IMG/VR virus record: IMGVR_UViG_3300042007_000202
Coordinates: 32,001-96,000 of that record
Source: a virus
Direction: 5' to 3' (one strand)
DNA: 64,000 nucleotides
Each line of letters begins with the position of its first letter. Positions within the stretch are counted from its first letter, which is position 1. Below, in pieces: positions 2,734 through 60,420 of this stretch. The notes beneath the pieces were generated by a model. That model saw only the letters and a program-made list of their open reading frames with translations, was not told where the DNA came from and searched no databases. Both the position numbers and the translations under genes were made by a program.

Positions 2734-3278
2734 GAGGGCTCCTGTGCGTCTTGCTGGGGCCACGGCAGGCCCTTCTGGAGGGCGGCGTATGCCTCCGCCC
2801 TGAAACGCTCCCACTGCGCCGTGTGGAGCGTCCTGAGCATGTGGTCGGCGGCGGTCGCCGCCTGCATCCACAGGATGTCGTCCTGGTGCTTGTCGTTACA
2901 CTCCCTCAGCGCGAGGACCTTACGGGCGGACATGAAGTACGTGGTGCGGGCCTGGGCGCCGCCGATCGGCTGGCCCAGCTCCTTCCACTGGAAGGCCTCC
3001 ATGCCTTCGACCAGCCCGTCCATCTCCATCGCCGCCAGGAGCCGTTCCGTGGCCGCGTAATCGATCACGGAACGGGCCCAGGTGACGGCTTCGTTCCTGC
3101 GCTGGCCGGTGGGCTGCACTCCGTACAGGCGGGCCGCAGCGATCAGCAGGTGGGCGCGGGTCATGGGGGCGGGTGCGCTGTCCAGGATGGTCAGGATCTG
3201 CCCCTTGGTCGGCACGGGCTTGTCCGCGTGGATGGGGGCGGGGTCCCCGGCGAGGGGGTACCGGCGGGCCCGGCTCAC
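2730..3278 (-). CDS. Hypothetical protein, possibly wHTH
   Basis: GTGA coupling; ILTILDSAPAPMTRAHL...LLAAMEMDGLVE is wHTH-like. Confidence 0.55.
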   Translation of the reverse strand: MSRARRYPLAGDPAPIHADKPVPTKGQILTILDSAPAPMTRAHLLIAAARLYGVQPTGQRRNEAVTWARSVIDYAATERLLAAMEMDGLVEGMEAFQWKELGQPIGGAQARTTYFMSARKVLALRECNDKHQDDILWMQAATAADHMLRTLHTAQWERFRAEAYAALQKGLPWPQQDAQEPS

Positions 3279-3625
3279 CGCTCCGCCTCCCGGAACGCGT
3301 TGTTCAGCGCGGTCACGAGCTTCTCCGAGCGTTCCACCAGCCACTCCGGGGCGCCGTCTTCCACGGTCAGCGGGCCGGACAGCAGGACGTTCCCGTGGCG
3401 GGTGCCGGGCTGGCGGTCGGACTTGCGCAACCACACGCCGTCCACGGCGGCGGCGCGCACGGACCAGTGGCCGTCGCACCCGCGCAGGGTGACCAGGGCG
3501 TAGTGCGCGGCCAGGTCGCGGGGGTTGCTCCTGCCGACTTCCCTGACCGGCTCGGCGCCTTCCGGCGGCACGATCCCCTGCATGAGTTCGCCGTCGCGCC
3601 ACACGGCGCTCTCGCTGCCGCTCAC
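3275..3625 (-). CDS. Hypothetical protein
   Basis: GTGA coupling at both ends. Confidence 0.65.
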   Translation of the reverse strand: MSGSESAVWRDGELMQGIVPPEGAEPVREVGRSNPRDLAAHYALVTLRGCDGHWSVRAAAVDGVWLRKSDRQPGTRHGNVLLSGPLTVEDGAPEWLVERSEKLVTALNNAFREAER

Positions 3626-4152
3626 CGTCCCCGCCTCTCTTCCGCGCGGGCGCGGCCTTCACCCACGAGGACGCCGGTGAGGAAGGCGATGCTGTCGTGC
3701 CACACCTGCTCGCGCTCCTGGGGGGTGAGCCCGTCGACCACCTCGGCCAGGCGGGCCGGGTCGCACACGGCGGCCAGGGCGCCGTCCGGCGCGACGGCCG
3801 CGTCCATGCGGAGGGACTTCAAGGCGCGCAGGGTCGGTTCGCTGACCACCTCAGCGACGGCGGGGGTGGCGGCTTCGGCCACGGCCGCCGCCGTCTCGCC
3901 GGGCATGGCGCCCTGGGCGTGCTGCTCGATGGAGGCGTACATCAGCCAGACGGACAGGGCCTGCTGCGCCAGGGGCGAGTACTGCGAGGCGATGGCGCAG
4001 TGGCGTTCCCTGCACGGCGCGCACAGGTTCCACGACGCGGCGAGCACCTTGGCCAGGTCGGGCGCCTTCTCCAGGATGGGGAAGGTGTCCAGCAGGTAGG
4101 AGGGCGGGGTGTGCGGCGCGCGCGGGCACGGGTTCTTCTCGGGGAGGTTCAC
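3622..4152 (-). CDS. Hypothetical protein (CxxC)
   Basis: GTGA coupling at both ends. Confidence 0.65.
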   Translation of the reverse strand: MNLPEKNPCPRAPHTPPSYLLDTFPILEKAPDLAKVLAASWNLCAPCRERHCAIASQYSPLAQQALSVWLMYASIEQHAQGAMPGETAAAVAEAATPAVAEVVSEPTLRALKSLRMDAAVAPDGALAAVCDPARLAEVVDGLTPQEREQVWHDSIAFLTGVLVGEGRARAEERRGR

Positions 4153-4754
4153 CGGTCGCCTCCCTGGACGGTACGGATGATCTCGGGCAGGGAAGCGTTG
4201 ATGGCGGCGGCCGTCAGTTCCACGGAGTGCAGGGCGTCATCCACCAGCGCGCGGCCGGTGGGCTTGCCGGGCGTGACGAGCGTGATCTGCGGGATGTGGC
4301 GGATGGTCGCCACGGTGGTGACGACCGGGCGGTCCGGCCGGACGCGGGGCTGCTGGAGGTAGGCGTAGTCGTCGCTCGACCAGTGGTGGTACGTGCCCCA
4401 GTCGTCGTACGTGTACGGGATCTTGGCGGCCAAGTCCCGATGCCGGAGCGGGAGTTCAACGGTGACCACCAGCCGGTCGCCGTCTTCGTCGTACCCGAGG
4501 GTGATCTTGTTGATGTCCGGCCGGAACTCCACCAGGCTGGGCGAGCTGACCTCCACCGTGGCCACCTGCCACGCCTGGATGGCGAACGCGATGGGCTCCA
4601 GCGGCTTCTTCTCCGGCTGCTCCCACGGGTCTTGGAACGACGGCTCACGCGCGCCGACGTAACTCCCGTACCGGGAGTAGCCGTTACTGGCGTTCTCGGC
4701 GTCGTGCTTTCGGTCCACGTGGACGATGTAGTCCGGGCCCCACGGCGTACTCAC
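4149..4754 (-). CDS. Hypothetical protein
   Basis: GTG at 4754 coupled to upstream stop; GGAGGAAGG RBS; MSTPWGPDYIVHVDR... Confidence 0.7.
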   Translation of the reverse strand: MSTPWGPDYIVHVDRKHDAENASNGYSRYGSYVGAREPSFQDPWEQPEKKPLEPIAFAIQAWQVATVEVSSPSLVEFRPDINKITLGYDEDGDRLVVTVELPLRHRDLAAKIPYTYDDWGTYHHWSSDDYAYLQQPRVRPDRPVVTTVATIRHIPQITLVTPGKPTGRALVDDALHSVELTAAAINASLPEIIRTVQGGDR

Positions 4755-5173
4755 TGGCCTTCCTCCTGTGCGATGTAGCGGAGCCTCTTGTAGGCCCGGC
4801 GGGTGATGCGGTCGGCGTTGTCGGCCTGGGGGCCCAGGGCGGCGAGCAGCGCCCTGGCGTCCTCCGGGTTGATGGGTCCGGGGTTGGTGCGGTACTTGCG
4901 CGGCTGCCGGGCGGGGAGCGTGACCTTGGGGTGGTAGCACTTCTCCCGCCGCCCGCTCTCGCCGTACGGCACCTTCCAGGCCCGGTCCTTGTCGGCGCTG
5001 TACAGGCTGTTGAGGGTGACCGTGACCTCACGCCCGCACAGGCGGCACGTCGCCTCGAACCGCTCGTCATAGTGCTCCGGCACGCCGCTCTTGGGCTGGT
5101 ACTCGGAGCGGTCGACCAGCGCCTCCTTCTCCTCCTGCGTGAGCTTGGCGACTCCGCGCGGGCGCTCGTACAT
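4751..5173 (-). CDS. Hypothetical protein (CxxC)
   Basis: ATG at 5173 with GAGAGG RBS; MYERPRGVAKL...TCRLCG. Confidence 0.7.
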   Translation of the reverse strand: MYERPRGVAKLTQEEKEALVDRSEYQPKSGVPEHYDERFEATCRLCGREVTVTLNSLYSADKDRAWKVPYGESGRREKCYHPKVTLPARQPRKYRTNPGPINPEDARALLAALGPQADNADRITRRAYKRLRYIAQEEGQ

Positions 5174-5241
5174 GGGGGCCTCTCGATCTGCGTGGATGGG
5201 GCCGGGTGGGCCCCCGGCCACCCGGCCGGGGGCGGGGGTGG

Positions 5242-6594
5242 TCAGGGGCACTCGGTGCACCACCCGCCCGCCTTGCGGATCTTGCCCTCGTCGCTGAGGC
5301 GGTCCAGGTGGTGGAGGGTCTTGTGGGTCTTGCAGGCCAGGGCGTAGCGGCTGTCCTGGCGGACTACCTCCGCGCCCGCCTTGGGCTTGTCGTAGAGCAG
5401 CTCCCAGCCGTCCACCGACGACGCGCCCAGGGCCTCGCGGCGGCCGGTCCGGCGGGCGGGCTTGGCGTCGCCCTGCGGGGCCTTGGGCTCGCTGGCGGGG
5501 ACGGTCGGGGCCGGGGTCTGGGCGGGCGCCTGCTGGGGCGTCTCGGGGGCCGTGGCGACCGGCGCGGCGGGGATCTCGTCCACGGGGGTGAAGACGGCGA
5601 CGCCCACGCGGTCGGAGCGGATGCCCTTGTAGACCTCGTTGCGCTTGATGGTCGCCTTGACCGTGACGAGCTGGTTCTCCTCCAGGTCCCAGGCGGACTT
5701 GGAGCTGGTGTTGGTGACCCAGGTGATGCCGGTGTCGGCGCCCTGGCCCTCCACCTTGACGAACAGGTACTCGCCGTCGCAGCGGTTCTCGATCTTGACG
5801 ACCTTGCCGGAGATGGTCATCCGGGGGCCCTTGGCGCCCGGGGGGACCTCGGCGGCGTGGCGGGTGGCGGCGGCGCGCTCGGCCTGGGCTGCGGTGTCGT
5901 CGTTGCGGACCACGGCCCGCAGGTACGCGGTGGACTGGGCTTCGAGGCAGCTGCCGTAGCGGATGGAGCGGATCATTTCCTGGATGCGGGCGGAGTAGAG
6001 GTCGAACACTTCGGACTCGATGACGAACTGGGCCCAGTGGCGGCCGTCGTCCAGGACGGCGGTCTCGGCGAGGCGGTCGGAGCGGTGCCGGGGGGTCTGC
6101 GCGGCCTCCTCGGTGTCCTCGATCTGGACGTAGTAGTCCATTTCCTCCTTGCCGGAGGGGGTGAGCGCCTCGGCCCAGGCGACCAGCTCGGGGTTGGCGG
6201 TGCGCCACGCGGCGATCTCCGCCTCCCTCTTCTCGAAGGCCTTGCGCTGCTTGGTGGACTCGGCCTTCACGGAGCGGGCGATGTTCCGGAGCTTGGTCTC
6301 GAACTCCTCGCCGTCGCTCCAGTAGTCGGTGACGCCGTGGCCCGCGCACTCGTAGCAGATGCCGTTGTCGGGGCCGTAGCCGATGTTGCCGGAGCCGCCG
6401 CACTTCCAGCAGAGGCTGTACCACATGTCGTCCATGCGGGCGAACTGGCGGGTCTTGGTGTGGTGGGGGGCGGTCCACTTGTACTCGCGGATCTCGTCCA
6501 CGTGGACCCGGCCGGTCGACCAGCCCACCATCGTGAAGTTCTCGCCGGTCAGGACGGTGAAGGTGGTCTCGATGTCGGCGGCCTGGGCGGTCAT
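5242..6594 (-). CDS. Multidomain protein: DnaJ-like Zn finger, putative OB-fold, Pro/Ala linker, C-terminal Cys domain
   Basis: CWKCGGSG...CYECAGHG; beta-rich RMTISGKVVKIE...LVTVKATIK; C-terminal YALACKTH...RKAGGWCTECP. Confidence 0.65.
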   Translation of the reverse strand: MTAQAADIETTFTVLTGENFTMVGWSTGRVHVDEIREYKWTAPHHTKTRQFARMDDMWYSLCWKCGGSGNIGYGPDNGICYECAGHGVTDYWSDGEEFETKLRNIARSVKAESTKQRKAFEKREAEIAAWRTANPELVAWAEALTPSGKEEMDYYVQIEDTEEAAQTPRHRSDRLAETAVLDDGRHWAQFVIESEVFDLYSARIQEMIRSIRYGSCLEAQSTAYLRAVVRNDDTAAQAERAAATRHAAEVPPGAKGPRMTISGKVVKIENRCDGEYLFVKVEGQGADTGITWVTNTSSKSAWDLEENQLVTVKATIKRNEVYKGIRSDRVGVAVFTPVDEIPAAPVATAPETPQQAPAQTPAPTVPASEPKAPQGDAKPARRTGRREALGASSVDGWELLYDKPKAGAEVVRQDSRYALACKTHKTLHHLDRLSDEGKIRKAGGWCTECP

Positions 6595-7767: not shown

Positions 7768-8292
7768 TCAGAGGTCGAGCGTGAACTGCAAGCTCACACC
7801 GGAGCAGCCCCCGGCGACGTCGGCCGGGTCCTGGCTGATGAACTCGATACGGTCGCGCTTGAGCGCTTCACAGCAGGCCGCCGCCGCCCGCAGCGCGCGG
7901 GCGTCACGCAGGAACCCCCAGGCGGACTCGGTGCGCTCCTCGCACGAAACCGGCTGACCGTCCTGGCTGACCGGCACACACCGGTACACCCCGGCTTCGA
8001 TCCAGGCGCGCACCCGCATGGGCTGGCACTTCATCACCGAGGTCCGGTTGCCGATGGCCTGGGGGTCCAGCCGGACCACCCGCACGTACGCCTGCCCGCT
8101 GGCGCCGCCCTCGCACTCGCAGTCGCAGAAGTCGGCCGGGGGCTTGCTCGCGCCCCACACCAGACAGCAGGCGCACACCGGCCGCCCGGCCGCCGCCAGC
8201 TCGGCGCACACGCACGCCAGGAACGACTGGAGCTTGGGGCCCAGCGCGGGGTCCGCCTGCTCCGGGGTGAGGACGGGAGGGGGGGTGGTCAC
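7768..8292 (-). CDS. Cys-rich tail terminator/completion-like virion protein
   Basis: Follows the adaptor; GQAYVRVV..EAGVYRC..GGCSG pattern typical of cluster-B-like actinophage genes at this position; GTGA coupling. Confidence 0.55.
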   Translation of the reverse strand: MTTPPPVLTPEQADPALGPKLQSFLACVCAELAAAGRPVCACCLVWGASKPPADFCDCECEGGASGQAYVRVVRLDPQAIGNRTSVMKCQPMRVRAWIEAGVYRCVPVSQDGQPVSCEERTESAWGFLRDARALRAAAACCEALKRDRIEFISQDPADVAGGCSGVSLQFTLDL

Positions 8293-9167
8293 GTCTGATC
8301 TCCTCGCTGAGCCCACGGGGCCGGGTCAAGGTCCAGGCTGATCACGGCCGACGGCTGGCGCAGCGAGTTCGGGTTCACCGTGGCGATCCACGAGTCCACG
8401 TCCCGCAGGCCGGTGTAGCCCTTGTCCAGCCACTCCCCGGGGTCGAACATCTCGTAGGTGATGTTTTCGCGGGTCACGGTCTGCACCCGCTCCGGCAGGC
8501 GGCACCCCTTGGCGCCGGTGCACTGCTTGTAGATCTCGTTCGCCAGCGAGCCCAGCGCCCGCATCCCCGCCGCCGGGACGGCCCGTCCACGCAGATAGAG
8601 GACGGAGAAGGTGCCGGGCTCGGTGATGTCCTTCTCCAGGTCCTGGCACGTCGGCCAGCACTCCCCCTCCAGGCCGCCGACCCGGTTGAGGTCGCCGTAG
8701 CCGGAGCGCCGGTGCAGGGTGTACTGGTCGGGCGGGAGCACCTCCCCGTCCACGCGGACTTCCACCACGGCGTTGACCGGGCCGGGCAGCCGGATGGTGC
8801 AGGGGGGCTTGCAGCCGCAGTCCATGCGGGCGCACCCGCACCCGAAGTTGAACCACTTCCCCCGCTCGTCCAGGTACGGATTGTTCACGGAGTTCTGCCG
8901 GGGGTCCCACAGCCATCCCGTGCCGTGCTGGTCGGGGGTGCACGGGCGGCGGCACGGCCGGATCAGCTCCGGGCACAGCCCGTACCGCCCGGCGGTGCGC
9001 GCCCACAGCATCTCCGTGGCGATCTCCACCGCGAGCACGTGTTCCGGTGTCCAGTCGGACACCACGGCGGGGAAGTCCGGCGCGCAGGCGGTGTCCAGCG
9101 GCCACGCGCACGGCCCGGTCCCGTCGGGCGTGAGAGGGCCAGGGGTGGTCGGGTTGATCACCGGCAT
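8289..9167 (-). CDS. Head-to-tail adaptor/connector
   Basis: WPLDTAC...IATEMLWARTAGRYG, LPGPVNAVVEVRVDG, CRLPERVQTVTRE, TGLRDVDSWIATVNP. Confidence 0.75.
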   Translation of the reverse strand: MPVINPTTPGPLTPDGTGPCAWPLDTACAPDFPAVVSDWTPEHVLAVEIATEMLWARTAGRYGLCPELIRPCRRPCTPDQHGTGWLWDPRQNSVNNPYLDERGKWFNFGCGCARMDCGCKPPCTIRLPGPVNAVVEVRVDGEVLPPDQYTLHRRSGYGDLNRVGGLEGECWPTCQDLEKDITEPGTFSVLYLRGRAVPAAGMRALGSLANEIYKQCTGAKGCRLPERVQTVTRENITYEMFDPGEWLDKGYTGLRDVDSWIATVNPNSLRQPSAVISLDLDPAPWAQRGDQT

Positions 9168-9222: not shown

Positions 9223-12200
9223 TCACGCCACGCGCTCCAGGACGAGGTACGAGTTCGCGTACACGGTCGTGCCGGTGGCGTCGGCCGCGCCCTGAGCCCA
9301 CTGGAAGGCGTAAGTGCCGCCGCTGGCCCCGGTGACCACGAGGCCCTTGAGCATGGCGCCGTTGGGGGAGCCCATGTCGAACCAGCCGTAGGAGCGCGCC
9401 TGGTCCAGGGTGTTGGCCATGGTGCGGACGGTGGTGGCGTCGGAGGCGACAGAGGCGCCCGGCTGGAGGGTGGTCCACCAGCCGGTAGCGCCGGAGGGGA
9501 TGGCGAAGTCCATGGTGATGTCGCCGCCCGCCGACCCTCCCCACACGATCAGCCCGCGCATCTCGTAGACGGCGTTCGCGGCCAGGGTGACCAGCAGTTG
9601 GGTGTCGTTGGTCTGGACGGCGGTGTTGGTCCGGGTCAGGTTCGACGTCCGGCGCGCGAACAGCCGCTGCCCGATTCCGCTGGCCTGGAGGTTGTTGGCG
9701 AACAGAGTGCCGTTGACCGTGAGGTTCGTGTCGGTGACCAGGCTGCCCGGCTGGTCCCGGTAGAGCGTGGTGTCCAGGGCGCTGGACCCGCCCGCGCCCC
9801 AGTACATCTGGCCGTTGACGAGCTGGTAGAAGCGGGGTTGGGTGTCGCCGCTGATGCGGTGGTCGCGGGCGGCGTCGGTGGCGTTGGTGCGCAGGGTCTG
9901 GAGCAGAGCGCCGGTGGTGAGCTGGCCGGAGGCTGATCGCCACAGTCCGGCGTCTGTGGTGCTCGCGCCGCCCGGCCCCCACCACATGGCGCCGTCGGCG
10001 TTCACGAACCAGCGGCTGGCCGTGTCGCCGGTGACCCGGGCACTGAAGACGTTCCCGGCGGTGGTGGGCCGGTAGACGCGCAGGAGCGTGTTCTGCGCGG
10101 TGAGGATCCCGGCGGCCTCCCGCTCCAGGAAGGTGTCGCGGGCGACTGCCCCTGAGCCCCACTCCATCACGCCGCTGGCGCTCATCCGCCACCGGTCGAA
10201 GGTGTCCCCGGTGACCTGTACGCCCAGGGCGACGGCCGTTCCGCTGGCGCGCATGAGCTGGAGCAGCCCGGACAGCGTGGATGTGCCCAGGACGGCCAGG
10301 TTCTCGTCGAGCTGGAGCAGGTTCGCCGCCGCGCGGCGGACGTGGACGTCGGTGGCTGCGGCGCCGGACCCCCAGCCCACGGTGCCGTCCCCGTTGAGGG
10401 TGAGGCGCGGTTCGGTGTCCCCGGTGACCTGCACGCCCAGGGCGCGGGTGGCCGCCGTGGCGACGGTGGACTGGAGGGTGCCGGTGAGGGTTCCCCCGGT
10501 GAGGGCGAGGTACTTGGTGGCGGCGTCCGCGATAGCGGCGTCGCGGGCGGCGTCGGCCTTGGCCTGGGCCCCGGCCTGAGTCTCCAGGAGCGACGTGTCC
10601 GCGATGCCGTGCACCGCCGTGGTGTCGGCGGCGTGCGCGGCCAGCTCCGCGTCCGTCGCGTAGGCGTCCAGGGCTGCGCCGTCGAGAGTGCCGGTGACAG
10701 TGAGGTCCCCGTTGAAGGTGGCCTGGGCGGCGCCCGTGTCGAAGTCGAAGACCGCGTCGAACGGGTTGGTGCCCAGCATGGTCCGGCCCACCAGGTGAGT
10801 GCCGCCGGGCTCCCACCGCTGGAGCGTGGTCTGGGCGCCGGTGAAGTCGGGGTTCTCCCAGGCGGAGATGTACACCTCGGGGGCGACTTCGAAGTCCAGC
10901 GCGGAGCCGGTGGTGCGCAGCCGGTAGGCGCCCTCGTCGTCTGCGCGCTGCACGGTGAGGTTCGCCCCGTCCACCACGATGCCTCCGGTCACGGTGCCGC
11001 CCGTGACGCGGTTGAGGTACTTGGTGGCGGCGTCCGCGATGGCGGCGTCGCGGGCGGTGTCGGCCTTGGTCTGGGCCCCGGCCTGAGTCTCCAGGAGCGA
11101 CGTGTCCGCGATGCCGTGGACGGCGGTGGTGTCGGCGGCGTGCGCGGCCAGCTCCGCGTCCGTCGCGTAGGCGTCCAGGTCGGCCTGCGTCAGCAGCGCG
11201 GCCGTGTCGGTGATGCCGTGGACATCGGTGGTGGCGTTCGCGTGGGCGTCCAGGGCGGCCTGCGTAGCCAGCCCGGCCAGGTCCGCGTCCGTCACCAGGA
11301 CGCTCGTGTCAGCGATGCCGTGCACCGCCGTGGTGTCGGCGGCGTGGGTGTCCAGGTTGCCCTGCACAGCGGCTACGTCGGCGTCGGTGGCGAGCCCCGC
11401 CAGGTCGGCTTGGGTGGCGAGCTGGGCGGTGTCCGCGATGCCGTGGACGGCGGTGGTGTCGGCGGCGTGCGCGGCCAGCTCCGCGTCGGTCGCGTACTGC
11501 TCAAGGTCCGCGGAAGTCAGGAGCTGCGAGGTGTCCGCGATGCCGTGGACGCCGGTGGTGTCGGCCACGTGGTCAGCGAGCGTGCCAGCGACAGCGGCCA
11601 CGTCCGCATCCGTGGCGAGGACGGAGGTGTCGGGGATGCCGTGGACGGCGGTGGTGTCGGCCACGTGGGCGGCCAGGTCCGCCTGCACCTGCTGGAACTG
11701 CGCGTCGGTGGGGATGGTGGAGGTGTCGGGGATGCCGTGGACGTTGGTGGTGTCGGCGGCGTGCGCGGCCAGCGCGGCGGCCTGGGCCTGGTCCCCGGCG
11801 GTGATCTGCTCCCCGAGGTCGCTGCGCGCTTCGTTCACCTTGGCGGTGGCGTCCGCGCTGGCGGTGGCTTCGGCGGCGGCTTCGGCGGCGTCGGCCTTGG
11901 CCTGGGCCCCGGCCTGAGTCTCCAGGAGTGACGTGTCCGCGATGCCGTGGACGGCGGTGGTGTCGGCGGCGTGGACGGCCAGCGCGGCGGACACGGCGTC
12001 GGCCTTGGCCTGGGCTCCGGCCTGAGTCTCCAGGCTGGCGGTGTCGGGGATGCCGTGAACGGCGGTGGTGTCGGCGTTGTGGGCGGCGATCTTGGCGTCC
12101 ACCTGCTGTGGGGTGACGCCCTCTTCTCCGGTGCCGATGGGGACGCGGATGGACTCCTGGTCGATGCTGATCCAGTAGAACCCGGCCTCCACCCAGAAGT

Positions 12201-12375: not shown

Positions 12376-12452
12376 GGCACCTCCTGAACGTGCGGCCGGG
12401 CGGGCGGCCCGTGGGCCACCCGCCCGGAGGGGTGATCTGCGCGGATAAGGGG

Positions 12453-46905: not shown

Positions 46906-46915
46906 ATTAGGGTGT

Positions 46916-48844: not shown

Positions 48845-48858
48845 GCGGTGATGTCCTC

Positions 48859-51461: not shown

Positions 51462-51462
51462 C

Positions 51463-51723: not shown

Positions 51724-51906
51724 TTGGCTTGAACCCTCGCTTTGGTCGATCCTATCGATGCCGTGTGTCATGACGTTATCACACGTGATCGTTGTACACG
51801 TGCTTTGTGTTGCCCGGCCGGGCGGGCGGGCGGGAGTACCCCCGGCCGGGCGGCCGGGCGGGTCTCGCCGGTGCGTGCGGGCCGGAGGGCTGCCCCGGCC
51901 TGCGCG

Positions 51907-52632
51907 TCAGCCCTCCGGCCCCTCTTCGAGTTCACGCACAGCGGCCCTCAGCCGGTCGCGCGACCGGCGGAAGAACTCGCGAGGCGGGAGATCGTCCTCG
52001 GGGTTTTCCACGGGCAGGCGGGGGCTGGGCCAGGTCTTGCCGACGCGGAAGGCCGGGCGGCCGAACCAGACGGTGGCCATGTCCCAGGTGTAGAGGGACG
52101 GGACGCCGCTGTCGGGGTCGGGCAGGCGCGTCTGGACCATCCCCTGGTGGGTCAGGTAGACCCCGGCGATCCCCGTGGACAGCATCGCCTTCCAGTCGAT
52201 CATCCTGGACATGATGCCGGTGCGAAGGCCGCAGGTTTCCAGGAGCCGGGACAACGGGTGGTCGTCCTGGGGGAACGCGGCGTACAGGGCGACGGCGTCC
52301 TCGGCCCGGTCGACCACGGCGAACGGCGCGGCGGGGGCCGGGAAGATCTGCGTCTGCCACGCGTAGTTGACGAACGTCTGCATGCCCTCCTGCTCGCACC
52401 ACTCCGTCCACGCGGATCGGCGGGGGACGGGGCGCCACTTGCCCTCGGGGAGGACGGCCGGGGACGTCCAGAGGCCGCCTGAGGGTTTGCTGTCGCCGGG
52501 GTGGTTGGTGATGGGGCGCCACTTCTTGCGGGCCATGGTGTGGGGGGCGGGGTCGTGCCGGAGGAGGACCGGCAGCTCACTGCCGAACCGGATCGGGATC
52601 CTGAGATCGCGCCAGGGGCTGCGCGTAGCCAT
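51907..52632 (-). CDS. Phage hypothetical protein (KPxGGLWTSP family)
   Basis: KPSGGLWTSP..AWTEWC..IDW..GVYLT..LYTWD; AAGGA RBS. Confidence 0.7.
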   Translation of the reverse strand: MATRSPWRDLRIPIRFGSELPVLLRHDPAPHTMARKKWRPITNHPGDSKPSGGLWTSPAVLPEGKWRPVPRRSAWTEWCEQEGMQTFVNYAWQTQIFPAPAAPFAVVDRAEDAVALYAAFPQDDHPLSRLLETCGLRTGIMSRMIDWKAMLSTGIAGVYLTHQGMVQTRLPDPDSGVPSLYTWDMATVWFGRPAFRVGKTWPSPRLPVENPEDDLPPREFFRRSRDRLRAAVRELEEGPEG

Positions 52633-52757
52633 GCGGTGGTCCTTCGTTCGTTGCCGTGTGCGAGGGGTCGGCCGTGGGCCGAAGGGTAGACGCCCCCGGC
52701 CGCCGCCCGGCCGGTCTTTACAGGATCGGCAGGAGCGGCGGCCGGGGGCCGGGCGGG

Positions 52758-53816
52758 CTACAGGCGGCCGTCGGCGGCCAGGACCGCCAGGTTCTTCGCG
52801 CGGACCTTGAGCTTCTCCTGGGAGAAGATCGTCCGGCCCATCAGGGTGTCGGTGTTCTTGTAGCGCCGGTCGTGGTCCAGGTACTCGCCGCCCGCCTGCA
52901 TCAGGCCGTAGGCCGTGTTGCCGATGCCCTCGCAGGTCGGGGAGTCCAGGATGACGCGGACCTTCTGGCGGGCGATGGTGACGTTCTCCAGCGCCTTCGG
53001 CTTGAGCTTGTGCTCCAGCTTGGTCGGGTAGACGAACTCGTCGACCCAGCGGCTGACCTGCTCGTCCGAGACGGTCTTGAGGATCATCTCGTCAGCCAGC
53101 TCGGCGTAGGCCTTCATCTCCTTCTCGGCGCCGGACAGGGCCGCCTTGACGTCGGCCTGGAGCTCGGCCATGCGCTGGCGCCACTGGGAGCGGTGGTGGA
53201 AGGCGAAGGTGGTGGCGCTGGCCTCGGACTGGGTGTCGGCGTAGTGCCAGGTGTTGGCGCAGACCACGCGGATGTTCGTGGCGATGGCCTTGCAGGCGCC
53301 GTGGCCGTCGTGGCGGTTGAGGAGCGCGATGTAGCGGGCGGTGGGGCTGGGGTCGCCCTTGATCTCCAGGAAGTCGCCCATCTGGAGCAGCGCCCACACC
53401 TGGCGCCCGCTGTCCAGGCACCCGGCGGTCTCGAACTTGATCTCGTGCCCCGACATGAACGTCTCGATGATGTCGCCCATGTCGGAGTTGGTGATCAGCT
53501 CGTACTGCTCCAGGGCGGTGTCCAGCACCATGTTGTTGTCGGAGCGGACGATGAGCTTGTGGCCCTCCACCGCCTCGTAGGTGGTGGTGGGCTCGCCGTC
53601 CACGACGGCCGGGACCCGGCGGTACAGGGGCTCCTCGATGGGGTCCCAGTCCAGCCCGGCCGGGACGCGCGCCTCCTGCCACGTCTTCGGCGCCTCCTCC
53701 AGGATCACGGTCCGGCCGTCCTGGCCGGTCTCCCCGTAGTGCCACGGGAGCTCCCGCAGCGGCGCGTTCGCGCCTTCCTGGTGGACGCTGAACATCTTTT
53801 CGACCTTGTGTGCCAT
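52758..53816 (-). CDS. DUF932 / TIGR03299 phage-plasmid protein
   Basis: MAHKVE..PWH..AGLDW..ETAGCLDSGRQVW..HDG..RVVCANT..GNTAYGLMQA..EYLDH. Confidence 0.88.
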   Translation of the reverse strand: MAHKVEKMFSVHQEGANAPLRELPWHYGETGQDGRTVILEEAPKTWQEARVPAGLDWDPIEEPLYRRVPAVVDGEPTTTYEAVEGHKLIVRSDNNMVLDTALEQYELITNSDMGDIIETFMSGHEIKFETAGCLDSGRQVWALLQMGDFLEIKGDPSPTARYIALLNRHDGHGACKAIATNIRVVCANTWHYADTQSEASATTFAFHHRSQWRQRMAELQADVKAALSGAEKEMKAYAELADEMILKTVSDEQVSRWVDEFVYPTKLEHKLKPKALENVTIARQKVRVILDSPTCEGIGNTAYGLMQAGGEYLDHDRRYKNTDTLMGRTIFSQEKLKVRAKNLAVLAADGRL

Positions 53817-53881
53817 GCGGCTTCTTCCTCCTGTGTCGGCGGGGTTGGCCCGGTCCGCTGGGCCGATCCGCGCGGATTGAC

Positions 53882-53930
53882 GCAACACCAATATTACACA
53901 CACATGCTGCGTGCGCAAATCCCGTGTCTC
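53882..53930 (-). promoter_or_regulatory. Promoter cassette upstream of the DUF932 gene
   Basis: GAGACACGGGAT-TTGCGC-16 nt-TAATAT-TGGTGTTGC; flanked by 12-bp palindromes at 53866 and 53935. Confidence 0.65.
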
Positions 53931-53983
53931 TTGTATCTGCGTGGATCGGCCCGGCCGGAGGCGCCCGCCCCCGCCCGAACAGC

Positions 53984-54040: not shown

Positions 54041-54496
54041 CTACACGGCCACCGACACCGGCAGCTCACTGCCGTCGCCGCTGAAGAACGCGGCGGCGGC
54101 GGCCAGCTTGCCTCCGCACCGCTCGTCCAGGTTGGCCAGAACAGCCGCCAGCAGGTCCTCCCGGTCCTTCACATCCGGGTCCGCCAGGGCGGCATCCAGA
54201 GCCTCCTGGATGTGGGCCCGGACGCCGGGGTACATGTCCGCCTGCCCGAGCACGTAGGCGGGAACCTCCCGCGTGTTCAGGTTCCGTGCTTCGCCGTCCG
54301 TGGTCACGACCTGGTACGCCGGGCGTTCGCCGGTCCTGTCGTATCGCTTGTACTGCGGCCCGCCCGCCTCATTCATTGCGCGCAGAGCCGCGACCCGGCG
54401 GGCGATGGCGTTCTTGCCCAGCTCCGGGGCCGACGGCGCGTACACCGACATCCTGATCACCTTCTTCCCATGGTCTATGAGACACCAGTATTGCAC
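54041..54496 (-). CDS. Hypothetical protein (start uncertain)
   Basis: ORF followed by a terminator. Confidence 0.6.
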   Translation of the reverse strand: MQYWCLIDHGKKVIRMSVYAPSAPELGKNAIARRVAALRAMNEAGGPQYKRYDRTGERPAYQVVTTDGEARNLNTREVPAYVLGQADMYPGVRAHIQEALDAALADPDVKDREDLLAAVLANLDERCGGKLAAAAAFFSGDGSELPVSVAV

Positions 54497-54523
54497 GCGC
54501 GTGATGCGTCAGCCATCGTGCAC

Positions 54524-55048
54524 TCACTCGCCCGGCTGTTCGGACGGCAGCTCAGAGTCGGATTCCGCCTCAGGACTCGGGGCGGGTTCGGCCCGCTGAG
54601 CACGGCGGCGCTGGGCTTCGCTGGTGATCCCGGCGATGTCGACCAGGGCCGCGCGCACCTGGCGCGTGACGCATCCGGGGAGCGACGCCAGCAGCTCCAC
54701 TGAGCCCTCCCAGCCCCCGTCGGCACGCAGGTCGGCCAGGGCGCGGCCGAACACCCGGCGCACCACGTAGTCGCCCATGGAGCCCCAGTCCGTACGCTCG
54801 CGCAGCGCCTTGGCTCTGGGGCTGCCGAGGCTGGACGCCTCCAGCAGCTCCGCGAACTCGCGCTCCTGCTCGGTGGGTGCCGCCTCGGTGCCGGTGCGGG
54901 CGGCCACGTCGCCCGGCGGGATGTCCAAGGCCGCCGCCACGGCGGAGTCGAACTCCTCCACCAGTCCACGCAGATGGGGATCGTCTTGGGCGTAGTAGCG
55001 CAGGCGGCCCAGAGTGGAGAGTGCGGCGGCATGCGTGATGGCGTCCAT
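54524..55048 (-). CDS. Hypothetical protein
   Basis: MDAITHAAAL... Confidence 0.6.
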   Translation of the reverse strand: MDAITHAAALSTLGRLRYYAQDDPHLRGLVEEFDSAVAAALDIPPGDVAARTGTEAAPTEQEREFAELLEASSLGSPRAKALRERTDWGSMGDYVVRRVFGRALADLRADGGWEGSVELLASLPGCVTRQVRAALVDIAGITSEAQRRRAQRAEPAPSPEAESDSELPSEQPGE

Positions 55049-55056
55049 GCTGGTCA

Positions 55057-56240: not shown

Positions 56241-56870
56241 TCAGTTCTCCAGGAGTCCCCATCCGGCGGGGCCGCGCCACGTGAGCGGCTGGCCGTCGGC
56301 GGGGGTGTCGTAGTAGGCCATGGCGGGCGCGGGGGCGTTCGCCTTGACGATGGCGAGCAGCGTATTGAGGCCGGTGGTCAGGCGCCCTTGCCGGTCCACG
56401 CGGATGGGGCTGACGAGGCGGTAGTCCCACTCGCCGTTCGTGAGCTGGGCGGCCATCTCGTTGACGCTGACCAGGTCGAAGCAGTCGGCGGCGTACTTGG
56501 CGTCGGCGGTGTTGGCGAGGGTCAGTGCGACGCCCGGCTCGAAGATGGCCACCGGGTCTTCGCTGTGCTCGGTGTCGTCGGGGAAGAGCAGGTGTTCCGC
56601 GTGGAACAGGGTCAGGGCGCGGCCCAGCGTGGTCACCACGGTGCCGTCGTCGGTCTTGCGGGCCACGGGGACGGGGATGCCGGTCTCCAGGACGGCGTCC
56701 GGGACGGCCAGCTCCAGGTTCGGGTCCGCTCCGGCTTTGGCGCGGTGGGCCAGGTCGCGCAGCCAGGCGCCGAAGGCCGTGGGCAGGGGGGGCCAGATGG
56801 CCTGGCGTACGTAGGCGATGGGGTCGGTGGCCGGGTCGGGGCCCGGCGGGGTGTTCCTCGTGTCGCTCAT
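56241..56870 (-). CDS. Hypothetical protein, possibly degenerate ParB-like
   Basis: AAQLTNGEW..SPIRVDRQGRLTTGLNTLLAIV echoes the 49639..50982 ParB-like core without the QHR motif. Confidence 0.55.
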   Translation of the reverse strand: MSDTRNTPPGPDPATDPIAYVRQAIWPPLPTAFGAWLRDLAHRAKAGADPNLELAVPDAVLETGIPVPVARKTDDGTVVTTLGRALTLFHAEHLLFPDDTEHSEDPVAIFEPGVALTLANTADAKYAADCFDLVSVNEMAAQLTNGEWDYRLVSPIRVDRQGRLTTGLNTLLAIVKANAPAPAMAYYDTPADGQPLTWRGPAGWGLLEN

Positions 56871-57212: not shown

Positions 57213-57476
57213 TCACCTCTTCGGGGGGTGGAGCACGACGCCGGGCGCGTGGTCCGGCATGGGGCCGTCGTCGGGGTTGGGGGCCTTGGGGCATTCGCGG
57301 TCTTCGCCTCCGACGAGGTTGCCCACGGTCCAGGGGGCGCCCTCTTCGGCCAGGCTGATGACCTCCCCGCAGTACGTGCAGCAACTGCGCTTGGGGTAGC
57401 CGTCCGGGTCGGGCTCCGGCGGCGAGGGCGGGGGGCCGTGCACCACGGGCGGACTGGCGGGAATGAACGGGATCAC
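57213..57476 (-). CDS. Small Cys protein
   Basis: CTYCGEVI..W..C..H. Confidence 0.55.
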   Translation of the reverse strand: MIPFIPASPPVVHGPPPSPPEPDPDGYPKRSCCTYCGEVISLAEEGAPWTVGNLVGGEDRECPKAPNPDDGPMPDHAPGVVLHPPKR

Positions 57477-57946
57477 GGTGCCTGCTTCGGGTCGTGTTCG
57501 GGGGTGTCCGGCGCGCCGGGGAGGGGGTGGGCGGCCACGTCGGCTTCGAGGATGTCATCGGGGTGGACCTGTTCGATGCGCTCGCCGTGGCACACGTCCA
57601 CGTAGAAGCGGCGGGCCACGGCGGTGTCGATGTGGTCGTGCCGTCCCAGGGCGCCGATGTGGGTGTAGCCGTTGGCGACGACGCGGACGTGGACCGCCTG
57701 TCCGGTGGTGCACCCGCGCAGCATCGCGTCCAGCGCCATCCCGGTGTACGGGGGCACGGGGGCGCCCTGGTCCCTCAGGGCGCTCAGCAGGTGCTTCGCG
57801 CGGAGCTGGGGGCAGGGCTTGGTGCCGGTCCAGTGGTGGGCGGTGCAGAAGCCGTGTGCTTCCAGGTCGCACGGGGTGTCTTCGTAGAGGTCGGCCACGA
57901 TGCCGAGGGCGACGGTGAGGGCGGCCTGCTGGCTGAGGAGAGCCAT
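57473..57946 (-). CDS. Hypothetical protein
   Basis: AGGA RBS; PC..HGFCTAH..PCP. Confidence 0.6.
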   Translation of the reverse strand: MALLSQQAALTVALGIVADLYEDTPCDLEAHGFCTAHHWTGTKPCPQLRAKHLLSALRDQGAPVPPYTGMALDAMLRGCTTGQAVHVRVVANGYTHIGALGRHDHIDTAVARRFYVDVCHGERIEQVHPDDILEADVAAHPLPGAPDTPEHDPKQAP

Positions 57947-58002
57947 GGGTTCCTGTCTGCGCGGATAGGCCGGGCGGGCGCCCGCCCGGCCGGGTGGGCG
58001 GG

Positions 58003-58341
58003 TCAGGTGAGGGTGATCTCGAAGGCGTCGGGCCAGCCGTGGGTGCGGACGATGCGCTCCTGGTCGGCCTGGGGGTGCTTGGCGTAGTTCCGGATCAGCG
58101 TGGCCATGCGTTCGGTCTGGCGCTGCTTGAGGTGGAGGGGCATGCCGGAGCGGTGGCCGAGCACGATGTAGGGGCGGTCGCTGGAGTGGCGGGCCCAGCC
58201 CGCTTCGAACCGGCCGCGCCGGTCGGTGGAGACCATGATGGCCTTGCGGGTGAAGTGCTCGGCGGCCAGCTCGCGCAGTTCCTCCAGGAGCGCTTCGGCG
58301 GCCAGGGGCATCCGGTTGCCGGGCCGGGGTTTGGTGTTCAC
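58003..58341 (-). CDS. Hypothetical protein
   Basis: GAGAGGA RBS. Confidence 0.65.
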   Translation of the reverse strand: MNTKPRPGNRMPLAAEALLEELRELAAEHFTRKAIMVSTDRRGRFEAGWARHSSDRPYIVLGHRSGMPLHLKQRQTERMATLIRNYAKHPQADQERIVRTHGWPDAFEITLT

Positions 58342-58389
58342 GGTGGCTTGGTCCTCTCTCGATCTGCGCGGATCGGGTGGGGGTGCTGT

Positions 58390-59526
58390 TCAGCGCATGG
58401 GGTGGTTGGTGATGGTGCGGCCGTCGTCCTTCGCCGCGTTCACCGGGATCGGCGCCAGCCAGTGGATGTCGATCTCCTGGCGGCCGGGGCCGACCCGGTA
58501 CAGGTGCAGGTGTGCGCCGCGCACGTGGGGGCGGACCTTCTTGCCGGTCCCCGGGCCGAGCTGGGCGGCGGCGGGCGGGCGGCGGATGTGGTCGGCGATG
58601 ACCGAGCCGGTGACCCAGCCCAGGCGGCGGACGCGGGGGGACTTGGGGCGCCGGGGCTTGCCTTTGGCGGCCGGGGGGCGGATGGCGCGGGGCTTGGCGT
58701 CCACCTCCGCGCTCCGGGAGCACGCGTACAGCAGGTGTGCCACGGCGGCGCGGGCGCACGTGGTCATGTAGGTGCGGCGGGTGTCGTCGTCGGTGCGGCG
58801 CAGGCGGACGTCCGGCGCCCAGGCGAACGTCTTGTCGACGATCACTTCCACCAGCTCGTCGATGGTGAACTCCCCGCTGAGGGGGACGGAGAACTGGACG
58901 GCGTCAAGGTCCTGGACGCGGTTGTCGGCGGTCAGCACCGTGGAGTGGACGACCACCCGGTAGGCGTTGGCCTCGGGGTCGTGGGTGTCCACGGGGATGC
59001 CCTGGCCCGTCTCCATGGCCGCGCGCATCTGCCCCACGTAGGGGTAGCGCGGGCTGACCACACCCGTCACGGTGACGGCGATGATCCGCCCGGGGAGTCC
59101 GTCCGCGTGGACCAGCTCGGGGGCGCCCGGCAGCAGGAACATGGGGTTGATGTGGGGCAGCCGGGTGAGCACCGCGCCGGGGATCTTGACGTCGGACTTG
59201 AGTTCCATCAGCTTCGCCGTCATGGCGGGGTGGGGCTCGTAGGTGTCGCGCTGGGCCTCCCAGAGCCGGTGCAGCCGCAGTTCGCCCGCCGCCTGGACCA
59301 TCCGCTGCTGATCGGCGTAGCCCAGCTTCCTGAGCGCGTCTTCGATCTGGGCGGTCGGGACCTTGCCGGGCCCGCTCAGGAGCCCGTCCAGGCCGAGCTT
59401 GCGCAGCTTGCGCTCACTGTAGGCCGCGCTGTCCTGGATCGTGTCCGCGATCCACTCGGCGGTGTACGGGTCCGGCGCGGGGGGTGGCGGGTAGAGCGGG
59501 TGGTCCAGGAGGACGGACGGGGCCAC
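58390..59526 (-). CDS. Mobile-element hypothetical protein with C-terminal RPHxRxAH motif
   Basis: VRPHVRGAHLHLYRVGPGR..HWLAPIPVN. Confidence 0.7.
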   Translation of the reverse strand: MAPSVLLDHPLYPPPPAPDPYTAEWIADTIQDSAAYSERKLRKLGLDGLLSGPGKVPTAQIEDALRKLGYADQQRMVQAAGELRLHRLWEAQRDTYEPHPAMTAKLMELKSDVKIPGAVLTRLPHINPMFLLPGAPELVHADGLPGRIIAVTVTGVVSPRYPYVGQMRAAMETGQGIPVDTHDPEANAYRVVVHSTVLTADNRVQDLDAVQFSVPLSGEFTIDELVEVIVDKTFAWAPDVRLRRTDDDTRRTYMTTCARAAVAHLLYACSRSAEVDAKPRAIRPPAAKGKPRRPKSPRVRRLGWVTGSVIADHIRRPPAAAQLGPGTGKKVRPHVRGAHLHLYRVGPGRQEIDIHWLAPIPVNAAKDDGRTITNHPMR

Positions 59527-59538
59527 GGCGGGACTCTC

Positions 59539-60420
59539 TCAATCTGCGTGGATGGACTCGGTGGGGGTGCCGAGCGCGGAGGTCAGGACGGTGAGGTCAG
59601 CGAGCGCGTCGCGCTTCGCTTCGTCGGCGGTCGGCCGGACCACGAGGGTGCGGCCGTCAGCGACCTGGATGACGCGGAAGCCGCCCTCGGGGTGGACGGC
59701 CTCCAGCCGGAGCACAATGCCACGGGCGCGGAAGTCCTCGCGCCAGTAGCCCACCTCCTCGGCGCGCAGTCGCTCCATGCGGTAGCCGCCGCGCGTGTTG
59801 AGCAGGCCGTTCCCGCGTAAGGCTGCGCCGGTCTGCGTGGATGCGCGCACCCGGGCCAGCTCGCGGCCGTCGCTCCTGGCGGTCAGGCGCCACACGTCGG
59901 TGCGCTCGCCGCGCGGGGCCGGGATGCCGCCGGGCAGCGGGCACTGGCCGGTCATGTGGCGGAGCATCATCACCTGGTCCAGCAGCCGTTCCACCGGCCA
60001 CGCCAGGGCCTCCTGGTACGCCTTGCACACGCTGTAGCGCGCGGAGCGGGCGGGGCTGCCTTCCAGGGCGGCGGCGGGCGCGGTGTGCGCCACGTACGCG
60101 GCGGCGTGCTCGCGCTGCGAGCGGCGCAGGGCGCCTTCCTGGTTGGCGATGATCAGGTCCAGCTCGGCCATCTCTTCGGCGTCCGGCATCTGCGGCAGGA
60201 GCTGCGCACTCCAGTCGACCGTGACGTACCGGGTGGTGGTGCCGTTGCGGTGGCGGCGGATGCGTTCGGTGGTGGTGCGCGTCATCTCCGCGAGGCCCCT
60301 GCGTTCCAGGGCCTCGGCGGTGGTGCGGGCGACGCGGTGCGTGCCGCCGCTGTGGATCTTTCCGTCAGGGGCCTCGCGCAGGGCGTCGTAGGCCCTGGTT
60401 TGCGCCTTGCTGAGCTTCAT
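59539..60420 (-). CDS. Hypothetical protein, N-terminal wHTH-like; contains a TTA codon
   Basis: KLSKAQ..TAEALERRGL; TTA at 59818-59820. Confidence 0.65.
   Translation of the reverse strand: MKLSKAQTRAYDALREAPDGKIHSGGTHRVARTTAEALERRGLAEMTRTTTERIRRHRNGTTTRYVTVDWSAQLLPQMPDAEEMAELDLIIANQEGALRRSQREHAAAYVAHTAPAAALEGSPARSARYSVCKAYQEALAWPVERLLDQVMMLRHMTGQCPLPGGIPAPRGERTDVWRLTARSDGRELARVRASTQTGAALRGNGLLNTRGGYRMERLRAEEVGYWREDFRARGIVLRLEAVHPEGGFRVIQVADGRTLVVRPTADEAKRDALADLTVLTSALGTPTESIHAD

Follow-up and report, generated by a model that had tools for sequence, protein, structure and literature searches.

A dispersed, dyad-symmetric 12-bp word in an undescribed phage lineage, predicted to form an array of sites for a dimeric DNA-binding protein

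The 64,000-bp stretch of DNA analysed here (the window) comprises bases 32001-96000 of a single 108,671-bp virus contig, IMG/VR record IMGVR_UViG_3300042007_000202 (genome G000), and carries 35 copies of the 12-bp palindromic word RTCYRCGYRGAY. From its sequence properties we predict, with a probability of roughly 0.7, that the word marks an array of duplex-DNA sites for a symmetric, dimeric DNA-binding protein encoded by the phage. An element-wide binding site for a dimeric protein had been proposed in the first-pass annotation of the window, and the symmetry of the word, the matching symmetry of its flanks, the lack of covariation between its halves and its conservation all fit that proposal; binding is a prediction, and for the protein that would read the sites we can name candidates only. 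Coordinates refer to the window unless marked as genome coordinates.

Excess, symmetry and conservation of the word

A pattern search recovered 35 copies, at every coordinate where the word had earlier been counted by eye (Table 1), and the initial estimate of fewer than one copy by chance was borne out by 100 dinucleotide-preserving shuffles of the window, which gave a mean of 0.51 copies and a maximum of 3. The whole 108,671-bp genome holds 52 strict copies (0.48 per kb). A relaxed pattern, in which C is also accepted at position 5 and G at position 8, finds 67 sites in G000 and 89 in G001, a relative described below.

This excess survives codon-preserving controls. Genes were called by third-position GC, a crude procedure with approximate start codons that yielded 135 genes covering 82% of the genome. 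Within the called coding sequences (CDSs) lie 24 complete copies, compared with a mean of 1.09 (maximum 4) after shuffling of codon order and of 4.95 (maximum 11) after shuffling of synonymous codons only; in G001, 28 CDS copies compare with 1.14 and 5.42, respectively. Since both codon shuffles are exceeded, the excess resides in the encoded peptides as well as in synonymous codon choice. Rare codons such as GAT and GCA serve to spell the 12-mer inside CDSs, and the IHAD-type peptide that had been noticed among the translations does recur, as 15 of the 24 CDS copies are in frame 0 and read Ile-(His/Arg/Cys)-(Ala/Val)-Asp.

The word is also rare in a host chromosome. The 9.4-Mb genome of Streptomyces sp. 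NPDC051907 (G002) contains 150 matches (0.016 per kb), which is about 30-fold below the phage density; at least 27 of the 150 sit on three phage-like contigs, and those on the chromosome are, among the matches listed, mostly of a GC-rich G...C form produced by codon usage. The two density comparisons that the first-pass annotation had set as possible refutations, with codon-preserving shuffles and with a host chromosome, thus both favour the observation. A GATC or Dam-type explanation was rejected, with GATC occurring at its expected frequency and 30 of 454 GATC sites touching a 12-mer.

When the 12-mer pattern was relaxed one position at a time, positions 2, 3, 6, 7, 10 and 11 proved near-invariant, positions 1, 4, 9 and 12 tolerated almost exclusively transitions, and C at position 5 and G at position 8 were also accepted, in about 10-18% of sites. 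At the two pyrimidine-purine (Y-R) steps of each site CG, CA and TG are all common, and TA occurs in 1 of 104 half-sites compared with about 12 expected under independence. Each Y-R step thus retains at least one G:C pair, as would suit a reader that directly contacts a guanine of one strand or the other. CA is about three times as frequent as TG at the degenerate steps when the coding strand is read. We read this bias as an effect of composition and not of site orientation, because T is scarce on the intergenic coding strand and the genome has a strong AT skew.

The symmetry continues into the flanks. A pyrimidine stands at position -1 in 97% of the copies outside CDSs and 79% of those inside, and a purine at position +14 in 93% and 83%, respectively; position -2 is mostly C and position +15 mostly G or A. 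Given these symmetric flanks, the unit is a 16-bp dyad with the 12-mer as its core. An exact 18-bp palindrome is found at two places in the genome. Across all copies nothing is conserved past about 3 bases on either side, which rules out a piece of a longer repeat or mobile element; the exception to this isolation is a set of three promoter-side 12-mers that lie within duplicated gene cassettes.

The two halves of the 12-mer do not covary as a hairpin would need, and pairs 4/9 and 5/8 cannot form in the commonest variant, which leaves two of its five inner pairs open. It follows that neither an RNA hairpin nor a DNA cruciform is maintained, and both were excluded. Z-DNA-type alternation of the central six bases was given up as an explanation when position 5 was seen to tolerate C, and position 8 G. 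Pairing of junction copies with the 3' end of 16S rRNA, as we take that sequence to be, was likewise set aside, as the word stands in the wrong order relative to the ribosome-binding site (RBS) and is symmetric.

Scanning IMG/VR with the pattern returned one contig with repeated matches, G001, which is 111,261 bp long, 98% complete, and syntenic over 81% of G000 at about 75-88% DNA identity. It carries 59 strict copies, compared with 3 for a reversed control pattern. Forty-six G000 sites can be aligned to G001 and the word is kept at 31 of them (one of these, 18951, lies in a short, apparently non-orthologous alignment); the differences between the two genomes are mostly transitions at degenerate positions, and four further sites scored as lost carry the relaxed variant. 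For intergenic copies, identity reaches 0.88-0.93 within the word against about 0.75 in the flanks, and given this peak we consider copies at junctions and promoters to be held in place.

Further relatives place the word within one lineage. A third relative is represented by the three phage-like contigs of G002 (C106, C133 and C166), which hold 0.43-0.61 strict copies per kb and whose portal protein is 74% identical to that of G000; a 12-kb IMG/VR fragment adds 5 copies in 10.5 kb. At a greater distance stand five Streptomyces elements, plasmid NC_015952 among them, whose portals are 48-56% identical; over 12-191 kb their density is 0-0.02 copies per kb, and what they share with G000 is limited to head and tail genes. 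No analogous repeated palindrome was seen when these motif-free relatives were searched for exact palindromes of 10-14 bp, and Saccharomonospora phage PIS 136, which has one copy, is too distant to help. From the comparison of motif-bearing with motif-free elements it follows that the 12-mer is a trait of a single lineage, along with that lineage's whole non-structural gene set.

The contig is a phage genome with a GC content of 71% (70-73% along its whole length), and window genes include those for a portal protein, a large terminase, a tail component and a tyrosine recombinase. A 1192-aa head protein at 21432-25010 combines a MuF-like domain with a NUDIX hydrolase domain. Phage and plasmid collections held no near-identical DNA, and for the large terminase, identity reached at most 48% with Gordonia phages and 47% with PIS 136. 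A 19-base phage junction sequence had a single match in the genome collection. It falls on a 9.8-kb contig from Streptomyces sp. NPDC051907, and this contig shows synteny to phage bases 6,000-13,200 (genome coordinates). Because this one match sits on a syntenic Streptomyces contig, the host genus is very probably Streptomyces.

Two phage proteins discussed below, of 177 and 447 aa, have homologues in several Streptomyces assemblies, on contigs that measure 103-115 kb; among these are contigs of S. longwoodensis (109,842 bp), S. andamanensis (106,095 bp) and NPDC059278 (103,011 bp) and a JGI contig of 114,657 bp. These contigs, together with the ParA ATPase that the phage encodes, suggest the lifestyle of a plasmid-prophage (an extrachromosomal phage-plasmid) rather than of an integrated prophage. 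In Streptomyces assemblies, elements of this lineage either form separate contigs of some 100-115 kb or are split over a few small ones.

Placement at gene junctions and promoters

The word is concentrated between genes, where the 28 non-CDS strict copies amount to 1.47 per kb compared with 0.27 per kb for the 24 in CDSs, a five-fold difference. Eleven copies lend their first A to the last base of the TGA stop codon of a called gene (0.3 expected under random placement), and 16 of the 67 relaxed sites end within 30 nt upstream of a start codon (2.9 expected); at ten sites a stop and a start are both close by. Of the TG-flanked sites, about half do not form a stop codon. Junctions follow one of two orders: either a stop codon overlapping the 12-mer, then an RBS-like purine run and a start codon, or a stop codon, a GC-rich hairpin, the 12-mer, an RBS and a start codon. 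The eight copies that the first-pass annotation had placed just upstream of an RBS or at gene ends, entered as junction copies in Table 1, are indeed followed by an RBS-like purine run, with a start codon within about 8-20 nt. Placement between stop codon and RBS can be loosely explained: gaps are short, the flank of the word can supply the TGA, and a block at such a point would end a transcript after a complete gene.

A subset of copies lies beside promoter-like cassettes, of which the genome contains 21. In these, 9-bp inverted arms that begin GACAC, and so differ from the 12-mer, flank sigma-70-type boxes at -35 and -10; examples are found at 17963-18010, 46859-46905, 53880-53928 and 63802-63810, and at genome coordinates 4668-4712, 96485-100446 and 107513-107648. 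Several cassettes read as promoters on both strands. Judged by sequence, the GACAC arms look like a second, separate operator family that would control most promoters. In five of the 21 cassettes a 12-mer precedes an arm by 6 or 14 nt, three of the five being paralogous and hence not independent. The copies at 53866 and 53935 bracket the promoter that heads a co-directional gene run from a DUF932 gene through ParA to its partner gene, and on G002 contig C133 a 12-mer lies 28 nt upstream of the DUF932 homologue.

GC-rich stem-loops with arms of the CCCGGCC/GGCCGGG type are very abundant, single 12-mers of the stem-loop family occurring about 45 times (examples at 5200-5227, 12396-12427, 18489-18512 and 57967-57992). 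A crude scan found 94 hairpins with stems of 8-12 bp, many of them after stop codons, lacking a T-run and often adjoining a 12-mer. They may be terminators or RNA-stabilising structures. The copy at 32986 is the only 12-mer framed in the loop between G/C arms.

Table 1. Copies of the 12-bp word in the window, and genes for candidate readers and related proteins. The state in G001 is taken from the G000-G001 alignment; kept, word present at the aligned place. Signs in brackets give the strand of the gene named. HTH, helix-turn-helix; ORF, open reading frame; AF2, AlphaFold2; pLDDT, predicted local distance difference test score.
Feature	Coordinates	Strand	Setting or evidence	State in G001
Copy	3222-3233		In CDS 2730-3278 (-), 45 nt from gene 5' end	Relaxed variant, G at position 8
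Copy	4713-4724		In CDS 4149-4754 (-), 30 nt from gene 5' end	Kept
Copy	5186-5197		Junction: GC hairpin, copy, RBS; 12 nt upstream of start of gene 4751-5173 (-)	Identical
Copy	6496-6507		In CDS 5242-6594 (-)	Lost
Copy	8585-8596		In CDS 8289-9167 (-)	Lost
Copy	8748-8759		In CDS 8289-9167 (-)	Identical
Copy	9209-9220		Gene end, 2 nt past stop of 1050-aa gene 9223-12375 (-)	Stretch unaligned
Copy	12435-12446		Gene end, 6 nt past stop of 12453-13022 (-), then GC hairpin	Kept, one transition
Copy	14619-14630		21 nt upstream of start of gene 13134-14597 (-)	Lost
Copy	17937-17948		Divergent intergenic region, 14 nt upstream of promoter-cassette arm	Kept
Copy	18517-18528		Junction, after hairpin; 12 nt upstream of start of gene 18541-18951 (+)	Relaxed variant, C at position 5
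Copy	18951-18962		Junction; first A ends TGA of 18541-18951; 14 nt upstream of next start	Alignment short, apparently non-orthologous
Copy	20680-20691		Gene end, overlaps TGA of 20691-21194 (-); with flanks a perfect 18-bp palindrome	Identical
Copy	22521-22532		In MuF/NUDIX head gene 21432-25010 (-)	Kept
Copy	23233-23244		In MuF/NUDIX head gene 21432-25010 (-)	Lost
Copy	28055-28066		In called gene 27765-28235 (+)	Relaxed variant
Copy	29323-29334		Intergenic gap 29021-29571; pair 51 bp apart, with 29374	Kept
Copy	29374-29385		Intergenic gap 29021-29571; pair 51 bp apart, with 29323	Kept
Copy	32986-32997		Start of large terminase gene 31398-32987 (-); in loop between 10-bp C-rich/G-rich arms (32976-33007)	
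Copy	33155-33166		Small ORF 33019-33279 or intergenic, upstream of terminase gene	Unaligned
Copy	34284-34295		Junction: last 15 nt of gene 34269-34775, then RBS and start of 33667-34269 (-)	Kept
Copy	38147-38158		In TET-associated ParB-like gene 37592-38419 (-)	Relaxed variant
Copy	40311-40322		Intergenic, upstream of hairpin and Xre-type gene 39982-40257 (-)	Kept
Copy	41833-41844		Junction: TG before, RBS-like run and TTG start after (-)	Identical
Copy	47742-47753		In CDS 47691-48308 (-), 51 nt from gene 3' end	Lost
Copy	52406-52417		In CDS 51907-52632 (-)	Kept
Copy	53866-53877		Promoter-flanking: 13 nt downstream of -10 box, 49 nt upstream of start of DUF932 gene 52758-53816 (-)	Identical
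Copy	53935-53946		Promoter-flanking: 6 nt upstream of cassette arm of the promoter flanked by the 53866 copy	Identical
Copy	54964-54975		Intergenic gap 54461-55056	Kept
Copy	56394-56405		In CDS 56241-56870 (-)	Kept
Copy	57955-57966		Junction: stop, hairpin, 12-mer, RBS; 8 nt upstream of start of gene 57473-57946 (-)	Kept
Copy	58362-58373		Junction: 16 nt past stop of 58390-59526, 20 nt upstream of start of 58003-58341 (-)	Identical
Copy	59101-59112		In CDS 58390-59526 (-)	Lost
Copy	59542-59553		Junction: ends just before stop codon of 59539-60420, about 15 nt upstream of start of 58390-59526 (-)	Identical
Copy	59831-59842		In CDS 59539-60420 (-)	Differs at position 1
177-aa protein directly after ParA, preferred candidate reader	48311-48844	-	ORF; 16 homologues	
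ParA/MinD-type ATPase, partition motor	48859-49563	-	Pfam CbiA (6.8e-14), MipZ (3e-13), others	
447-aa protein directly before ParA, second candidate reader	49639-50982	-	phrog_5931; AF2 pLDDT 85	
Xre-type HTH protein, 91 aa, weaker candidate reader	39982-40257	-	HTH_31/HTH_3 matches	
GntR-type winged-helix protein, 81 aa, candidate reader	63143-63388	+	PF00392 match	
ParB-like protein of TET/JBP-glycosyltransferase operon, 275 aa, N-domain only	37592-38419	-	phrog_723 (2e-36)	

Candidate readers and competing explanations

Our proposal is that the 16-bp dyad would be read, as double-stranded DNA, by a symmetric dimer of some protein that the lineage encodes. Each genome of about 110 kb presents 50-90 such sites, packed preferentially between a stop codon and the next RBS and often reusing the A of the TGA, with a subset beside sigma-70-type promoters and others set more loosely inside genes. 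The reader, in the version that we favour, would be the DNA-binding partner of ParA, the 177-aa protein, and the sites would have two roles: they would be the dispersed centromere of a plasmid-prophage of low copy number, and they would slow transcription across the genome, acting as roadblocks at gene junctions and through repression next to promoters. This partition-linked version is tentative, and we would place it at rather less than even odds.

Few G000 proteins match any family. The candidates for partition lie in a module at 48311-50982 with an unusual order, in which a 447-aa ParB-N-fold protein, the ParA ATPase and the 177-aa protein follow one another. The C-terminal 55 residues of the 177-aa protein are almost invariant (14 of 16 homologues aligned) and its N-terminal part is variable; outside the C-terminal stretch, identity across the three motif-bearing genomes falls to 42-51%. 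In an AF2 model the conserved stretch comprises a basic arm, a short strand-like segment and two helices, which we read as probably ribbon-helix-helix-like. The N-terminus carries an R-x-x-G-L-G-x-L-L motif reminiscent of the peptide by which chromosomal ParB stimulates ParA. G000, G001 and G002 all encode a member of the family, which was found in no other of 400 sampled Streptomyces genomes; scans of IMG/VR and metagenomes for it returned only G001.

On circumstantial grounds, we prefer the ParA partner as candidate reader: a conserved pair of 12-mers brackets the promoter of the par run, the surroundings of the par genes contain no repeat array of a kind that might act as a local centromere, and the central CG of the word is fixed. 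The 177-aa protein, moreover, directly follows ParA. Proteins that sit on the dyad have a fixed central CG in their sites more often than classical HTH dimers do. Phylogenetic profiling was uninformative for choosing a reader, because the motif-free relatives have only head and tail genes in common with G000.

The second candidate, the 447-aa protein, had been labelled ParB-like, and this label holds only for one domain: residues from about 165 to 261 gave VIA-align Z scores of 6.0-6.7 to ParB/Noc N-domains (root-mean-square deviation about 3 A over 86-90 residues), the best Foldseek rows were all ParB/Noc though weak (E 0.009-0.1), and a GxxRxxA motif is invariant in 28 homologues. The ParB-N/sulfiredoxin-fold domain is thus present, but no HTH DNA-binding domain was found in the protein, and its C-terminal helical domain had no specific match in Foldseek or VIA-align. 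No ParB with a DNA-binding HTH was found anywhere in the genome, which encodes two ParB-N-fold proteins lacking a demonstrable one.

Several points weigh against the proposal. Copies in CDSs show no identity peak over their surroundings between G000 and G001, and as they are no better conserved than these, many sites may be weak or turn over; each genome has many copies deep within genes that, by this comparison, appear to turn over. For the 177-aa protein, Pfam, a PDB profile search, Foldseek and VIA-align gave no ribbon-helix-helix match, a fold that forms only in the dimer, and its co-occurrence with the motif is not discriminating, because every non-structural gene of the lineage shows the same pattern. 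No cluster of 12-mers is present at the par genes (46500-52700), and the single copy close to the partner gene (47742) is not kept in G001. A set of 50-90 sites is, to our knowledge, far above that of any known centromere. Most promoters carry a different inverted repeat, with 9-bp arms, so the main repressor probably reads something else. Lastly, the GntR-type protein and proteins of no known family are possible readers.

The strongest alternative is that a dedicated transcription regulator with no role in partition, either the GntR-type or a family-less protein, uses the word as a silencing, insulating or timing grid in the manner of Cluster A stoperators or Cluster O repeats. The symmetry, the conservation and the placement at junctions and promoters suit such a regulator as they suit the ParA partner, the sites show no clustering around the par genes, and Cluster O phages carry more than 30 dyad-symmetric 17-mers with no par system (PMC4351075). 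However, no regulator stands out. About half of the putative recognition-helix residues of the Xre-type protein at 39982-40257 differ in G002, although that genome has an unchanged DNA word. An adjacent second Xre-type gene (39557-39832, 91 aa) has no match in G001 and may be an accessory module, such as an antitoxin. The GntR-type protein is 75% identical in G001 and has a 35% identical homologue in a motif-free relative (G318), and most promoters are enclosed by the other repeat. We regard a dedicated regulator as somewhat unlikely, though worth keeping in view.

It is improbable that the word acts in mRNA at junctions, as a processing site, a translational operator or a termination/reinitiation signal. 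About a quarter of sites do lie 3-30 nt upstream of a start codon, the 11 overlaps with TGA would suit such a role, and the coding strand mostly reads CA. A single strand, however, has no need of mirror symmetry, the halves do not covary and any hairpin of the commonest variant would contain two mismatches; about half of the copies lie in genes, about half of the TG-flanked sites are not stops, and the CA bias matches composition.

A further alternative concerns DNA modification. In the operon at 34772-38419 a Tet_JBP dioxygenase (5.8e-19) neighbours a ParB-like gene; the wider gene run (33667-38419) also encodes a likely small terminase, a possible glycosyltransferase that matches no family, and a protein with a weak, sub-threshold 3'-5' exonuclease-like match. 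No C5-methyltransferase was found in the genome, and because the TET/JBP operon is present in the absence of one, thymine is the likely substrate. By analogy with a published system, the operon probably specifies a ParB-dependent pathway of thymine hypermodification (PMC13229309). That study, from 2026, describes thymine dioxygenases with trinucleotide preferences, clear for NTC in a stand-alone enzyme and showing an inconclusive trend of NTG then NTA in a ParB-dependent one, with broad oxidation in vivo (17-35% of T) and a ParB partner that has no obvious DNA-binding domain (PMC13229309). The protein at 37592-38419 is of the same 5mYOX-associated kind and is unlikely to be the reader of the 12-mer.

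The first-pass annotation had suggested the 12-mer as a targeting sequence for this machinery, a role that is disfavoured, since the literature reports trinucleotide preferences and not long sites (PMC13229309). Sites that direct or limit hypermodification of T would be consistent with the presence of the operon, with thymine as its likely substrate and with the two invariant T in an NTC context in each site. The reported enzymes nonetheless prefer trinucleotides and oxidise broadly (PMC13229309), and an enzyme of this type needs neither an excess of the word nor its placement at junctions. We give this explanation little credence.

Sites for a host protein, serving as decoys or recruiters for host ParB or DnaA, are a poor explanation as well. 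The host genome has no comparable family, its matches (0.016 per kb) being mostly of the codon-driven G...C form. In each half-site the 16-bp form does agree at 6 of 8 positions with what we take to be the chromosomal parS palindrome, and its half-site core resembles the presumed DnaA box. The best sites nonetheless stand 5 mismatches from the 16-bp parS consensus as we assume it to be, and the degenerate positions of the 12-mer fall on bases that are presumably fixed in DnaA boxes, which counts against DnaA. No sequence closer than 3 mismatches to this assumed canonical parS was found in the phage. At that distance stands a single 16-bp sequence, at 56593-56608 in gene 56241-56870, whose palindrome is broken only at the two innermost flanking pairs.

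That the copies are crossover points for cassette exchange, through a tyrosine recombinase or short-homology recombination, is largely refuted: such a recombinase is encoded and some single genes bracketed by copies (genome 1032-1487 and 1559-1822) are missing from G001, yet ends of segments non-homologous between G000 and G001 fall within 25 bp of sites in 5.6-8.2% of cases compared with 9.3-10.6% for all gene boundaries, and recombination among at least 50 sites in both orientations would scramble a genome whose synteny is intact.

If the ParA partner does read the array, its 50-90 dispersed 16-bp sites could constitute a combined system of segregation and silencing, and if the TET/JBP operon acts like its relatives, thymine hypermodification could tune the binding. 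We consider this fuller picture doubtful.

Relation to known repeat arrays

Arrays of this type in actinobacterial phages are among the least understood of regulatory features, and the present lineage offers a tractable case: its word is sharply defined, there are few candidate readers by the ParA module, its elements occur as Streptomyces contigs of about 100-115 kb, and its thymine is probably hypermodified. Knowing the reader would show whether such arrays silence transcription, organise and segregate the genome, or both, and would give a compact, orthogonal operator-regulator pair for Streptomyces genetics.

The closest precedent is found in the Cluster O mycobacteriophages (Corndog and relatives), whose genomes contain more than 30 dyad-symmetric 17-bp repeats, about one third of them in genes; these are not tied to rearrangement points or to most promoters, and the authors predict that they bind a dimeric protein, the reader and role being not known (PMC4351075). 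Both cases involve tens of copies across the genome of an actinobacterial phage, dyad symmetry and a mix of intergenic and intragenic sites, and on the same criteria G000 has 52 strict or 67 relaxed copies, a word shared by close relatives, and breakpoints that are not enriched near sites. The two differ in form, the Cluster O repeat having invariant 7-bp arms around a 3-bp spacer, whereas the present site is a continuous 12-16 bp with a fixed central CG and six positions that tolerate transitions. Overlap with stop codons, seen here 11 times, is not reported for Cluster O, and those phages lack an integrase and parAB, in contrast to the ParA module and tyrosine recombinase found here.

The Cluster A stoperators, read by repressors such as gp71 of phage L5, are dozens of short intergenic sites that are asymmetric, oriented with transcription, match the operator of the early promoter and are proposed to stop transcription. 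The idea of a stoperator-like grid, raised in the first-pass annotation, is supported by the placement of copies in short gene junctions. The 12-mer is mirror-symmetric, however, with CA over TG as its only strand bias, and, unlike a stoperator, it does not double as the promoter operator: 5 of 21 promoter cassettes have a 12-mer nearby and the promoters carry other arms. Because the sites are symmetric and the promoters bear another inverted repeat, we do not count the array as a member of the stoperator family.

Partition systems supply a second kind of precedent. In KorB-OB of plasmid RK2 and omega of pSM19035, a partition DNA-binding protein uses scattered short symmetric sites, of which some adjoin promoters and others lie far from one, and acts both as global repressor and as centromere binder. 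These plasmids have about a dozen sites compared with 50-90 here, KorB belongs to the HTH ParB proteins, and omega recognises heptads in runs, features not seen in this lineage. Noc has about 70 dispersed sites, and parS and Noc sites are also palindromes of about 13-16 bp with a central C-G core, although the similarity to parS is partial and depends on the sequence as we take it to be. An earlier suggestion of parS/Noc-like sites thus agrees with the 16-bp dyad, its presumed parS likeness and the ParA module, but not with the lack of any detected HTH ParB or of clustering at the par genes.

The start-associated sequences of Cluster K phages contain the RBS, are asymmetric and are tied to start codons, whereas here only 16 of 67 sites lie within 30 nt of a start and the word stands 5' of the RBS. 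Collectively, these comparisons describe a new sequence family in an undescribed lineage, set apart by its tolerance of transitions, its fixed register with stop codons and its neighbouring ParA module.

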